A DNA stretch of 64,000 bases, from the sequence record OQ718158.1. One strand, given 5' to 3'. This document shows, in pieces, positions 26,567-28,642 of this stretch. Positions within the stretch are counted from its first letter, which is position 1. Each line of letters begins with the position of its first letter. This DNA comes from Escherichia phage vB_Ec-M-J. The translations under genes and the position numbers were made by a program. Under the pieces are notes generated by a model. The model was not told where the DNA came from. It was given only the letters and a program-made list of their open reading frames with translations, and did no database searches.

Positions 26567-27415
26567 ATGAAACTTTATCTAATCGTTGACTACAGTAAGG
26601 GTTATTATGACTACGCAGAAGAATCTGAAGGGTATTGCTCGTCTACTAATGTCAATGTACGCACAAGTAATACACATGAGCATGAATCTATTACAAGCCT
26701 AAAAGATTTCATCGCATATCGAGCATTTGAAAAGAATTTCTGTCGTAGTAGATATTCGAAGTTTGAGTACCCGTTAATTGATGTTCCTGATGAATTGATG
26801 TTCCAGTTAATGCTCACTGGAGTACAAGATTATGATTACATCGCGTACAATCACATTACTAAGAAAATTTATATCGGTACGTCAACACATGACATTTCTA
26901 TGTATGCATCATGCCCCGATGATCGAATGAATGATAGAAAATCATACTATAGTGGATCAGTTGGTTCAAATGATTCATTAAATGAAAATTTATTCTTTGA
27001 GTACGAGTTTGATAATCATCGAGGGAATAAAGACCGAGAAGATTATTGTACTGAAATTGATAGTACCAATGGATATGAAGAAGTGAAAGAAGCGTTAATG
27101 CCATATATCCTTGACAAGTACTACAAAGATTTTCAGTACTGTAGTAATTTTCTAATCAGAAATTCTATCATAATAGGTCGTCAAAGTACTGCATTCTCTA
27201 AGTACTACAATGATTCCCCTGTTGCTGAAAATGAAAACTGTAATGTTCTCTCAATCCCACGTGAAGATATGGTATTCATGTTCACATCTTTCATTGAAGA
27301 TGATGAGTTGTATGTAAAAAACAAGCACAGGTTCATGCCAAGTAAGATTGAGGTTATGAGAAGCTTAAGTGCAGATATCTTAACGAATTTCACTGAAAAA
27401 ACAGAATACAACTGA
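26567..27415 (+). CDS. hypothetical protein with family-A-like motif
   Basis: 282-aa ORF; GGGAGA RBS; motif PDELMFQLMLTG. Confidence 0.6.
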   Translation: MKLYLIVDYSKGYYDYAEESEGYCSSTNVNVRTSNTHEHESITSLKDFIAYRAFEKNFCRSRYSKFEYPLIDVPDELMFQLMLTGVQDYDYIAYNHITKKIYIGTSTHDISMYASCPDDRMNDRKSYYSGSVGSNDSLNENLFFEYEFDNHRGNKDREDYCTEIDSTNGYEEVKEALMPYILDKYYKDFQYCSNFLIRNSIIIGRQSTAFSKYYNDSPVAENENCNVLSIPREDMVFMFTSFIEDDELYVKNKHRFMPSKIEVMRSLSADILTNFTEKTEYN

Positions 27416-27441
27416 GACATACCATAAGTTTATGATATAAT
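27414..27441 (+). promoter_or_regulatory. sigma70-like promoter (GAGACA-N16-TGATATAAT)
   Basis: -35 GAGACA 27414-27419, -10 TATAAT 27436-27441 preceded by TGA; faces the ORF-free island. Confidence 0.45.
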
Positions 27442-27444
27442 GTA

Positions 27445-27478
27445 AGGTGACAGCAGAATATGTTGTCACCTTTTTTTA
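27445..27478 (+). terminator. rho-independent terminator-like hairpin
   Basis: AGGTGACAG...TTGTCACCT followed by TTTTTTTT. Confidence 0.6.
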
Positions 27479-28096
27479 ATCCTGAAAGGTTCCATATGGA
27501 AATGATTGAAGCCTAATCCACTCGAAAAGTAGAGGGTAGATGAGTAGTCCTTTCAGTACGAACAGCAAATGAAACCCGTTAGATGATGGCATAGTTTGAA
27601 CCACTCACGGCAATGCGGCTGTATAAAGAACTCCAATAGGATAAAGAGAGTTCCTCGATAGACATATAAGGATCGCACCTTACCAATTATCTAAGGGAGA
27701 TTTCATGAGAAATTTGCGGTCGTAATTTATACAAAATAGTTGCGTCCAAAATTCGTGAAATCAAATACAAGTACTGGTCATATGGTATTTGTATTATGTG
27801 TCGGGATGTTTAAGACCGACGACCGTTGCTACAAGAACCGCGATAGAGAGAAACAGAGCAACCCGCTTTCGCCTCGTAAGAGAATTCGTGATATGAACTA
27901 TGTGAAGGCCACCAGCGTCAAACTTTTTTTGTTCTTTCCCCTGCGGGGGGATGAAATATGCTCAAGCAAACCCCGTCAATATTAATTAAAACAAATCATA
28001 GTACTTTCGTTGAATTAGACATGCGAAGCGTGTATAATTCGACTGGTGTTGATGAAGTCAACGCCATGTACAGTCATTGATGTTTCCATAGGAATA
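27479..28096 (+). ncRNA. candidate structured non-coding RNA or regulatory island (identity unknown)
   Basis: ~600 bp with no credible ORF in a dense genome, visibly higher GC, palindrome TTCCATATGGAA, long-range complement CCTGAAAGG / CCTTTCAG, GC hairpin CCCCTGCGGGG. Confidence 0.25.
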
Positions 28097-28642
28097 ATGA
28101 TGTCATTTATTAAAAAATCTAAAAGCGTCACTTATAAAACACTAGAATTTGTTGATTCAGACAATCAGAACCAAGACCAGGAGAATTTTACTGGTTTTGT
28201 TGTGATTAAAGAAAAGGGATGTATTTCGTACATCAAAGAGTTGCAGTGCGGTTTTGAATTAACTTCCATTAAGTTATTCCCAACCAAGAAGCCTACAATT
28301 CTTAAAGCTCGTTATGGGAACTACTACGAAGAGCGTTATAGTAATAATCTAATCAGTGCGAAAGCACATATCGTCAATGGTGAACTAGAAGGAGAATATA
28401 GAAAATTCAACCCACAAGGAAAATGTGTTTGGGTTAAATACTTCAATTCAGGAAATGATGTAACATCAGAAATTATTGAGTTTTTAGGTTTAACATGTAC
28501 CCTTGAAACTCTTCATGATTACAAATTTAATACTGAAGAAGAGTTTAATCTGATGATGCGTTATGGATCACATTTTAAATTTTTATATGAATACAACATT
28601 GACAGTAGTACTTTTGATGACATAGTACTTAACTGTCTATAA
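28097..28642 (+). CDS. hypothetical protein
   Basis: ATG 28097 after AGGA; repeated G-x-Y/F motifs; C-terminal EEEFNLMM resembling family A. Confidence 0.55.
   Translation: MMSFIKKSKSVTYKTLEFVDSDNQNQDQENFTGFVVIKEKGCISYIKELQCGFELTSIKLFPTKKPTILKARYGNYYEERYSNNLISAKAHIVNGELEGEYRKFNPQGKCVWVKYFNSGNDVTSEIIEFLGLTCTLETLHDYKFNTEEEFNLMMRYGSHFKFLYEYNIDSSTFDDIVLNCL

Follow-up and report, generated by a model that had tools for sequence, protein, structure and literature searches.

To our knowledge, very few natural RNAs longer than 500 nt have tertiary structure of ribozyme grade: the ribosomal RNAs (rRNAs), RNase P RNA, group I and group II introns, OLE, GOLLD, ROOL, and a handful of others. With every class added to this set have come new biology or new structural principles. 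Here we describe a candidate for such a class in Escherichia phage vB_Ec-M-J (sequence record OQ718158.1), a PBECO4/121Q-like jumbo coliphage of the genus Asteriusvirus. The stretch of its DNA that was analyzed, 64,000 nt long, is referred to below as the window, and all positions are counted from its first letter unless another record is named. The element in question lies at 27414-28075, in a gap between genes that an earlier note, made from the sequence alone, had singled out as a possible site of a structured non-coding RNA (ncRNA).

The closest described RNAs are GOLLD, ROOL, and OLE. Like the window RNA, they are several hundred nt long, are built from many conserved helices and pseudoknots, and have no assigned function. 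Two published reports describe GOLLD and ROOL as often encoded by phages or prophages (PMC7567579; PMC12286853). The window RNA differs from these three in having no match to Rfam models (E <= 10) and no linkage to transfer RNA (tRNA) genes, and also in its distribution, with four to five copies per lytic jumbo phage and further copies in integrative defense islands. A second set of parallels comes from phage ncRNAs that are abundant but have no assigned role, namely the ~800-nt transcript of ICP1 (PMC7567579) and ncRNA001-004 of PA5oct (PMC7318152). These RNAs resemble the window RNA in occupying gaps of 0.3-1 kb without open reading frames (ORFs) in large lytic phage genomes, but they are defined by expression, whereas the window RNA is defined by structure alone. 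PA5oct ncRNA001 and ncRNA002 are not homologous to the window RNA in nhmmer searches.

Functional parallels come from replication origins and from satellites. ColE1 RNA II is a folded pre-primer of ~550 nt, and the T4 origins oriF and oriG use promoter-driven R-loops. Like the putative window transcript, these are promoter-driven, folded transcripts of ~0.5 kb, with a G-run and then AT-rich DNA; the T4 origins likewise occupy several dispersed loci per genome, and some carriers of the window RNA are elements with no replication gene in view. In contrast to these systems, the window RNA has much more tertiary covariation than such transcripts are known to require, no identifiable RNA-DNA switch or antisense regulator, and no occurrence among the plasmids of PLSDB. 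The bacterial islands that carry the RNA resemble P4-like satellites in being ~10 kb or larger and of low guanine-cytosine (GC) content, and in carrying an integrase, a cI-like repressor, and swappable defense systems. They differ from P4-like satellites in what they share with the putative helper phage, which is the RNA gene (plus one DUF4326 protein in one island) rather than a cos/pac site or a capsid gene.

Covariation and the fold of the RNA

Comparison of homologues establishes, at the level of sequence, that 27414-28075 is a free-standing gene for a ~630-nt structured ncRNA on the + strand, with a predicted promoter directly upstream. The predicted RNA is constrained to at least 19 helices, and long-range or pseudoknot helices, at least six in number (PKa-PKf), connect them. 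The family set consisted of 73 full-length copies, 57 of them unique, from which 46 representatives were taken at 97% identity. RNAalifold applied to alignment A1 (27 non-redundant copies) returned 70 pairs, 40 of them with compensatory changes, and an independent scan of the 46 representatives for double-sided covariation returned nested helices plus covarying runs for PKa-PKf. A 90-pair model, which includes the pseudoknots except PKa, whose 5' strand falls outside A1, was scored on that alignment. In the 27 copies 94.0% of the modeled positions were paired, versus 37-45% in slid controls, and the covariation score was 0.519 versus 0.05-0.09. Compensatory changes on both sides were present at 58 of the 90 pairs versus 18-19 in slid controls, which bears out the earlier suggestion of a structured ncRNA, and none of 500 shuffles equaled any of the observed measures. 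Eight held-out copies, from bacterial contigs and RaK2, kept 72-81 of 84-89 pairs (84-91%) versus ~35-50% in slid controls, at only 61-65% identity to the window copy. The minimum free energy (MFE) z-score of 27445-28075 is -4.26.

Several elements that the earlier note had read by eye can be placed in this fold. It had matched CCTGAAAGG at 27481-27489 with CCTTTCAG at 27549-27556; both strands lie exactly at these positions, and the pairing is a genuine covarying pseudoknot (PKa), which appears in other copies as CTGTAGC/GCTACAG, CTGTTGAA/TTCAACAG, CAACGG/CCGTTG, CUGAAU/AUUCAG, and others. The palindrome TTCCATATGGAA is also real, but it occupies 27490-27501, one base to the right of its original placement, and the GC hairpin CCCC-TGC-GGGG needed a similarly small shift, to 27938-27948. 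The region was recognized correctly, but its structured part extends further than supposed, to ~28075. The covariation of PKf makes the conserved tail part of this RNA, although a terminator-like hairpin precedes the tail in most copies, and since the 3' module is structured, the RNA fills the whole gap, ~27445-28075. A 3' junction motif, GA[AU]UU...AA[AU]UC, was found in 27 of 44 copies, and the individual MFE folds of all 27 give the same two-part 3' shape with differing stems.

Between the helices, the model leaves unpaired a set of invariant boxes: GAUAGA, UAAGGGAG, GACCGUU, AAACAGAGCAACCCG, and two CGUCAR boxes. The same boxes recur in every paralogue and genomic context. The two CGUCAR boxes change in concert, their last bases being G and G or A and A across the family, and both read CUUCA in RaK2. 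Other “invariant” blocks also differ in RaK2, including CACGGCAAUGCGGC and CGAUAGACAUAU. A module of ~45 nt (UUGCGRUNG...UACAAUAUAG...CCGUCCAAAAUU) is found at either or both of two insertion points (A1 columns ~265-320 and ~455-488), like a movable structural cassette. Some candidate pairings were discarded. An alifold helix UAAGGG/ACCGUUG and a pairing of UGA (5') with UCA (3') involve only invariant columns, so that nothing supports them; the former was replaced by PKe because GUUGC covaries with GCAAC of the H10 loop. Pairing between the CGUCA boxes and GAUGA boxes was rejected, as it is not maintained in Asteriusvirus or RaK2.

The composition and coding capacity of the gap are also those described earlier. 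Across 27500-28099 the GC content is 0.40-0.45, compared with 0.33-0.35 in both flanks (200-nt windows). There is no credible ORF between the stop of ORF 26567..27415 and an ATG at ~28100, and the sole ORF of more than 60 aa in the gap, 27740..27985, begins with TTG. Equivalent gaps without an annotated coding sequence are present in G17, from the same genus, and in GAP32 and RaK2. A pairing pattern alone cannot separate an RNA from single-stranded DNA of the same sense, and the element adjoins integrases in bacterial islands, so a DNA or single-stranded DNA element for recombination, packaging, or single-strand initiation has to be considered, as does a decayed coding gene. Both seem to us hardly credible. 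No ORF is conserved, the median longest + strand ORF being 38 aa across 46 copies, and alignment gaps fall out of frame, with run lengths modulo 3 distributed as 280/823/547 (n=1650) and only the 280 in frame. In addition, G-U pairs are tolerated on the + strand of the model, the promoter is conserved at a fixed upstream place, and both serine and tyrosine integrases accompany the same RNA.

Searches against known RNA classes were negative. In the whole window, Rfam at gathering thresholds returned nothing relevant for the RNA region, and at E <= 10 on 27300-28200 it returned only chance matches (DapZ on the terminator, small nucleolar RNAs, and Hatchet; E 2.6-8.8). No covariance-model match was obtained for GOLLD, ROOL, OLE, HEARO, or raiA, and no covariance-model or ARAGORN match for RNase P RNA, transfer-messenger RNA (tmRNA), signal recognition particle RNA, 6S RNA, or tRNA; ARAGORN found no tRNA or tmRNA in the 64-kb window. 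Resemblances seen by eye to RNase P, to 16S rRNA 1065-1110, and to the 5' end of tmRNA were dropped, as no model supports them. Across the family, tRNA genes occur in 1 of 42 loci, several kb from the RNA. Within the limits of these searches, the RNA represents an undescribed class, with no Rfam match and no description found in the searchable full-text literature.

These results bear directly on the proposal that the element is a diverged form of a known catalytic RNA, such as a group I or group II intron or an RNase P-like RNA. While large ribozymes are comparable to it in size and in how many pseudoknots they have, and HNH-like endonuclease genes, recognized by eye only, lie near two of the copies in phage TH47, we consider this explanation extremely improbable, given the lack of an Rfam match at E <= 10, the complete flanking ORFs, and the RNA's own predicted promoter. 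The group I intron model RF00028 had no match in the window (gathering threshold) or in 27300-28200 (E <= 10), and group II intron domains V/VI and D1-D4 had no Rfam match at E <= 10. An intron is further disfavored because the flanking genes are complete, one with its own stop and the other with its own ribosome binding site (RBS) and ATG, and have homologues of similar length (282 aa for the upstream protein, versus 260 aa for GAP32_066 and 286 aa for RaK2_445). The group I intron idea of the earlier note is thus not upheld. That note had also proposed a covariance-model scan, which found no known family, and a covariation analysis in related phages, which yielded a covariation-supported structure in homologues that do not code for protein.

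Table 1. Features of the predicted RNA gene and its promoter (positions in the window)
Feature	Position	Strand	Remarks
Promoter	27414..27441	+	-35-like GAGACA 27414-27419; 16-nt spacer; TG-extended -10 TGATATAAT 27433-27441
5' hairpin AAGGTGACA...TGTCACCTT, then T-run	27444..27479	+	Hairpin 27444-27472, 12 pairs
PKa	27481-27489 / 27549-27556	+	5' strand CCUGAAAGG pairs with H2 loop; covaries across paralogues and genera
Leader hairpin, palindromic UUCCAUAUGGAA	27490..27501	+	Variable; other copies have a different small hairpin there
H1	27513..27539	+	Core 27518-27523/27532-27536; conserved loop GAAAAGUA; 5/5 pairs compensatory
H2	27544..27559	+	Loop 27549-27556 CCUUUCAG is the PKa 3' strand
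H3 domain	27562..27622	+	H3a 27562-27566/27618-27622; H3b 27576-27579/27607-27610; variable inner hairpin
PKb	27613-27615 / 27663-27665	+	AUG (in H3 domain) with CAU; covariation
H4 GAACUC/GAGUUC	27628..27653	+	Covariation at every pair; as many as four pair types at one position
PKc	27639-27644 / 27687-27692	+	GGAUAA (H4 loop) with UUAUCU; covariation
Junction region	27654..27699	+	Invariant GAUAGA 27657-27662; invariant Shine-Dalgarno-like UAAGGGAG 27692-27699
H5 UAAGG/CCUUA	27667-27682	+	In junction region
H6	27699-27702/27759-27762	+	4/4 pairs compensatory; encloses optional hairpin module
Optional hairpin module	~27710-27755	+	Other copies lack it or have it at a second insertion site
TTG ORF	27740..27985	+	81 codons, entirely within the RNA; not a gene; frame not conserved
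H7	27764..27795	+	9/9 stem pairs compensatory
PKd	27778-27783 / 27891-27896	+	UCAUAU (H7 loop) with AUAUGA; 6/6 compensatory, 100% paired
H8 hairpin	27799..27821	+	RNAalifold and 90-pair model
Invariant GACCGUU segment	27821..27838	+	Holds 5' strands of PKe and PKf
PKe	27825-27829 / 27858-27862	+	GUUGC with GCAAC; covariation; 3' strand in H10 loop
PKf	27833-27838 / 27931-27936	+	AAGAAC with GUUCUU; variants AUGA/UCAU, AGAA/UUCU, AAGGAU/AUCCUU, GAAC/GUUC
H9 domain	27839..27890	+	H9 27839-27843/27886-27890; H10 27846-27850/27866-27870; H11 27873-27875/27880-27882
H10 loop			15 nt, AAACAGAGCAACCCG; contains PKe 3' strand
First CGUCAA box AGCGUCAAA, then U-run	27914..27930	+	
H12 (U)CCCC-UGC-GGGG(G), with G6 run	within 27931..27950	+	Varies on one side only
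AUGAAA...CAAACCCCGUCAA	27951..28011	+	Conserved; second CGUCAA box 27971-27979, then variable AT-rich linker
3' module	28012..28075	+	P-a 28012-28017/28035-28040 around P-b 28019-28033; P-c 28045-28065
Outer helix of 3' module	28041-28045/28071-28075	+	Possible

Copies in jumbo phages and bacterial islands

The gap region is 99.8% identical in phage Turkey3 and 99.7% identical in TH47 (MT446416.1). TH47 has four dispersed, co-oriented copies of the element, at ~49.6, 146.3, 262.2, and 345.8 kb, one of which corresponds to the window copy; no second copy was found within the 64-kb window by blastn or nhmmer. In the TH47 copies, variable or insertable hairpins interrupt the conserved blocks, as expected of a structured RNA. 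With sensitive BLAST, window positions ~27506-27990 are ~70% identical as DNA to distant RaK2-like jumbo phages (GAP32, BF, CBB, fHe-Yen9-04, 7t3/Munch, XbC2/XaC1, fENko-Kae01, and Erwinia phages), and genomes of other genera have four to five matching places each, mostly unannotated. Homologues occur at conserved genomic positions in all genera of RaK2-like jumbo phages that were examined. RaK2 itself has a full-length homologue (JQ513383.1, ~279.7-280.2 kb; nhmmer E=5e-54) in an unannotated gap of 739 bp. Compared with its GAP32 counterpart, the window RNA shows 71% identity over 512 nt, and the flanking proteins of the two phages are 31-42% identical with no alignment at the DNA level.

In motif scans, IMG/VR yielded 32 loci and metagenomes another 51; these lie on phage contigs of ~350 kb, shorter contigs, and island-bearing contigs. 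A looser motif scan of IMG/VR for ordinary-sized phages gave only eight unrelated chance matches, and among the phage matches listed all are jumbo phages of 310-386 kb except one 23-kb record. The paralogues have diversified and carry optional modules. Cultured E. coli phages with the RNA include PBECO4, 121Q, G17, phAPEC6, and Sharanji, among others. The RNA gene explains the ORF-free gaps of 0.6-0.7 kb that are unannotated or filled with spurious small ORFs in the jumbo-phage records examined. In genome papers and records the region is blank, filled with such ORFs, or in part marked “repeat_region”; several phage records other than UE-S1 call small hypothetical ORFs across the element, and the UE-S1 record (ON568341.1, 311350-311507) has the sole “repeat_region” mark among those examined. 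Near ~146.6 kb and ~344.8 kb, TH47 encodes two homologous ORFs of ~213 aa (MEFNMKLVYGFGINDVKGD... and MDKLMKKFYGHGICDIKGD...) that look by eye like HNH/AP2-type homing endonucleases, one directly upstream of an RNA paralogue; the second follows a different paralogue at a distance of two genes.

The genomic neighborhood could suggest a cis-regulatory 5' leader, that is, a riboswitch, attenuator, or processive antiterminator for the operon downstream of the window copy, which encodes a hypothetical protein, a Dam methylase, and a cytidylyltransferase. The RaK2 and GAP32 copies are syntenic with the window copy, keeping their place upstream of the hypothetical gene and dam. The window copy has no terminator before the next gene, its 3' module abuts the RBS, and terminator-like hairpins lie inside the transcription unit. 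We nevertheless regard a leader function as very unlikely, as it fails to account for the other copies. Unrelated genes follow the other paralogues, and the RNA of the islands converges on a repressor gene. One paralogue adjoins genes for endonuclease VII and gp46/47-like proteins in TH47, UE-S1, and CBB; in these three phages it has opposite-strand genes on both sides and a terminator after it. The invariant boxes are nonetheless the same in all these contexts.

A scan of bacteria with one genome per species found seven full-length copies. The hosts are Silvania, Enterobacter chinensis, Serratia, an Enterobacteriaceae isolate, two Enterobacterales metagenome-assembled genomes (MAGs), and a 2.8-kb contig binned into a Clostridium MAG. 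Six of the seven copies lie in an island of 33-36% GC abutting chromosome of 55-60% GC, the seventh being the 2.8-kb contig only. That the surroundings are chromosomal is confirmed by a thiamine pyrophosphate riboswitch at one locus and by STnc450 at a second. Island-bearing strains include Enterobacter chinensis 170198, Silvania hatchlandensis H19S6, and Serratia sp. 2723. Each island has one copy of the RNA, just downstream of and co-oriented with an integrase, which belongs to one of two unrelated families, large serine recombinases or tyrosine integrases. A cI/LexA-like repressor gene faces the RNA convergently in most islands, and beyond this gene come those for a membrane protein (286 aa), an LprI-type lysozyme inhibitor, and a small resolvase; the core also includes a Ner-like protein. 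The cargo varies between islands, with Lamassu, Kiwa, and a DarT-like protein plus a helicase among its contents. Among complete E. coli genomes, 2 of 5426 have an RNA island. That of E. coli LR-29-1 lies between ffs and ybaA, with the RNA in an unannotated gap of 1.4 kb.

Comparison of island ORFs with TH47 by tblastn revealed a single shared protein, a DUF4326 protein in one island; the other matches were to ORFs inside the RNA gene, plus one weak 55-aa match from the chromosomal flank. No replication or packaging genes were seen in the examined parts of the ~10-kb islands, no effector protein is consistently linked to the island RNA, and none of 72,556 plasmid records in PLSDB carries a copy. 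The islands may be satellites of jumbo phages or defense islands directed against them.

Possible roles of the RNA

Whatever biochemical activity the RNA has, and everything functional that follows, we infer from its structure and distribution. The explanation that we favor, and consider probable though far from assured, is that of a free-standing structured RNA gene whose product acts in trans as a folded RNA particle. Host RNA polymerase would transcribe the RNA, probably in the early or middle period of infection. The RNA would not serve as a leader for a neighboring gene but would form a compact, trans-acting particle, which might be a ribonucleoprotein scaffold, an RNA-only assembly, a ribozyme, or a decoy, and the invariant boxes would provide a contact surface for a partner. 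This is an attractive model because the fold is of the grade of ribozymes and other ornate RNAs, the same boxes are present everywhere, and some copies lie among opposite-strand genes, and because large, abundant ncRNAs are known in other big lytic phages. The concerted CGUCA/CUUCA change suggests that both boxes share a partner co-evolving with the RNA. Since the two CGUCAR boxes have changed jointly in RaK2, and since the islands retain the RNA while sharing no protein with the phage, this partner would be supplied in trans, by the infecting phage or by the host.

Several considerations weigh against this interpretation. Dispersed copies of the same orientation at conserved positions suit a cis function at least as well, and it is conjecture both that the RNA acts in trans and what its partner would be. 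In the window copy a strong terminator-like hairpin directly follows the promoter, which is odd for a simple RNA gene, and most other copies, but not that of the window, have a second terminator-like hairpin inside the RNA. The transcription, ends, and abundance of the RNA are predictions in every phage. As for the alignments, the family was collected via conserved-motif patterns, so that some of the invariance in motif columns stems from the way copies were chosen. Discovery and testing of the pseudoknots drew on overlapping alignments, a circularity that the held-out check only partly mitigates, and the alignments were made with MAFFT, which is not structure-aware.

The main rival to a trans-acting particle is an RNA-primed replication origin, in keeping with the origin-like element that the earlier note had listed as an option. 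The RNA would be a structured pre-primer or R-loop transcript acting in cis on the template that encodes it. Each jumbo phage would thus possess four to five origins, and an island with one of them would be replicated by the jumbo phage or would titrate its replication machinery. We think this doubtful, though it is the most serious of the alternatives. The dispersed, co-oriented copies at conserved positions are as expected for origins, and so is the invariant C4/G6 hairpin with AT-rich sequence after it. Phages and islands share almost no element other than the RNA, and the parts of the islands that were examined carry no replication or packaging genes of their own, while the concerted CGUCA change in RaK2 suggests that a co-evolving partner is phage-encoded. 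Moreover, the promoter class of the GAP32-like copies is found mainly before DNA-synthesis genes (PMC5259590).

The position of one copy is also suggestive of an origin, since it lies at a GC-skew minimum and an orientation switch, beside gp46/47-like and endonuclease VII genes. This is the TH47 copy at 261.9-262.5 kb (~90 kb on the reverse complement), where the cumulative GC-skew minimum coincides with a switch of gene orientation between the endonuclease VII/gp46-47-like genes and a block of opposite-strand genes. However, skew is uniform around the remaining three TH47 copies, and in this genome it follows gene orientation. Six covarying tertiary helices and a structured 3' module past the G-run exceed what known origin transcripts need, and no site of RNA-DNA transition can be identified. 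Autonomous replicons without a rep gene would also be expected to include plasmids with the element, and PLSDB has none.

An alternative that takes the islands' cargo as its starting point is a decoy in the conflict between phage and host defense, which would be a special case of the trans-acting model. The phage RNA would sequester an effector or mimic its target, and the island copy would titrate a phage factor as one component of a core directed against jumbo phages. Phages can acquire ToxI-like antitoxin RNAs from defense loci. A sigma-70-type promoter would make early expression possible, the paralogues are diversified and have optional modules, and the islands combine a core of cI/LexA-like repressor, membrane protein, and LprI-type inhibitor with Lamassu-, Kiwa-, or DarT-like cargo. 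While these features are consistent with a decoy, the RNA behaves as a core gene, syntenic across genera and strongly conserved, whereas anti-defense genes are usually accessory and turn over fast, and no effector is consistently linked to it in the islands. A decoy therefore seems unlikely to us.

Beyond the favored trans-acting particle, the distribution of the RNA invites a more specific proposal, which we put forward tentatively and think more apt to be wrong than right. The RNA would be a new class of giant pseudoknotted RNA, core and multi-copy in RaK2-like phages, that acts at replication origins or in another phage-specific machine and was captured by defense islands as a single “handle” for replication by, or interference with, the jumbo phage. 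If true, no earlier case would exist of an RNA linking a jumbo phage with satellite-like islands. The near-exclusive sharing of the RNA between phages and islands suggests a testable link of a large RNA to jumbo-phage replication or to phage-island conflict. The RNA is tractable, as it is present in cultured coliphages with four to five diverged natural variants per genome, and the alignment is already rich enough for ~90 base pairs and six pseudoknots.

Promoter, hairpins, and neighboring genes

The promoter-like element that the earlier note had pointed out matches the consensus at 10 of 12 positions in a consensus scan, in addition to its TG extension, and it shares bases with the upstream gene's stop codon (27413-27415). 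Transcription is predicted to start at ~27444-27447. In 38 of 45 family copies a TGnTATAAT-like extended -10 lies upstream at a fixed distance, and the hexamer before it is usually GGGACA, GGAACA, GAGACA, or GAAACG. The GAP32-like copies have a promoter of the TGAAACG/-10 class, a divergent RpoD-like class that is enriched before DNA-synthesis genes in CBB (PMC5259590).

The terminator-like hairpin of the earlier note is present as well, with its T-run. It lies downstream of the promoter, however, and thus probably has two roles, opening the RNA and terminating transcription of the upstream gene; a terminator is annotated at the equivalent position in both G17 and GAP32. The order of gene stop, promoter, terminator-like hairpin with T-run, and RNA is kept in several subfamilies, including that of GAP32. 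Two ORFs of 282 aa upstream were compared as possible paralogues and are not paralogous.

At the 3' end, the RBS of the next gene is at ~28090 and its ATG at ~28100. A sigma-70-like promoter for this gene, TTGAAT-17-TATAAT (28010-28038), lies wholly inside P-a/P-b of the 3' module; this match may merely reflect the RNA sequence, or the segment may serve both purposes. At the equivalent of 28010-28050, other copies read TGAATTGAG... and have no such promoter. The downstream motif AACGAAGTGA was considered as a genome-wide promoter or iteron and rejected, as its 5 matches in the window compare with 4.9 expected and it is not enriched.

Judged by its motifs, the predicted RNA promoter is a member of the phage's general promoter class. 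The window has 18 TGnTATAAT elements on the + strand and 2 on the - strand. Those on the + strand are at 436, 2920, 12739, 16619, 18360, 23969, 25730, 27433, 29416, 33527, 38361, 41533, 41971, 44194, 46201, 49628, 53157, and 58543. Most of them have GGGACA, GAGACA, GGAACA, or TTGACA ~16 nt upstream, and together they form a candidate promoter map of the region.

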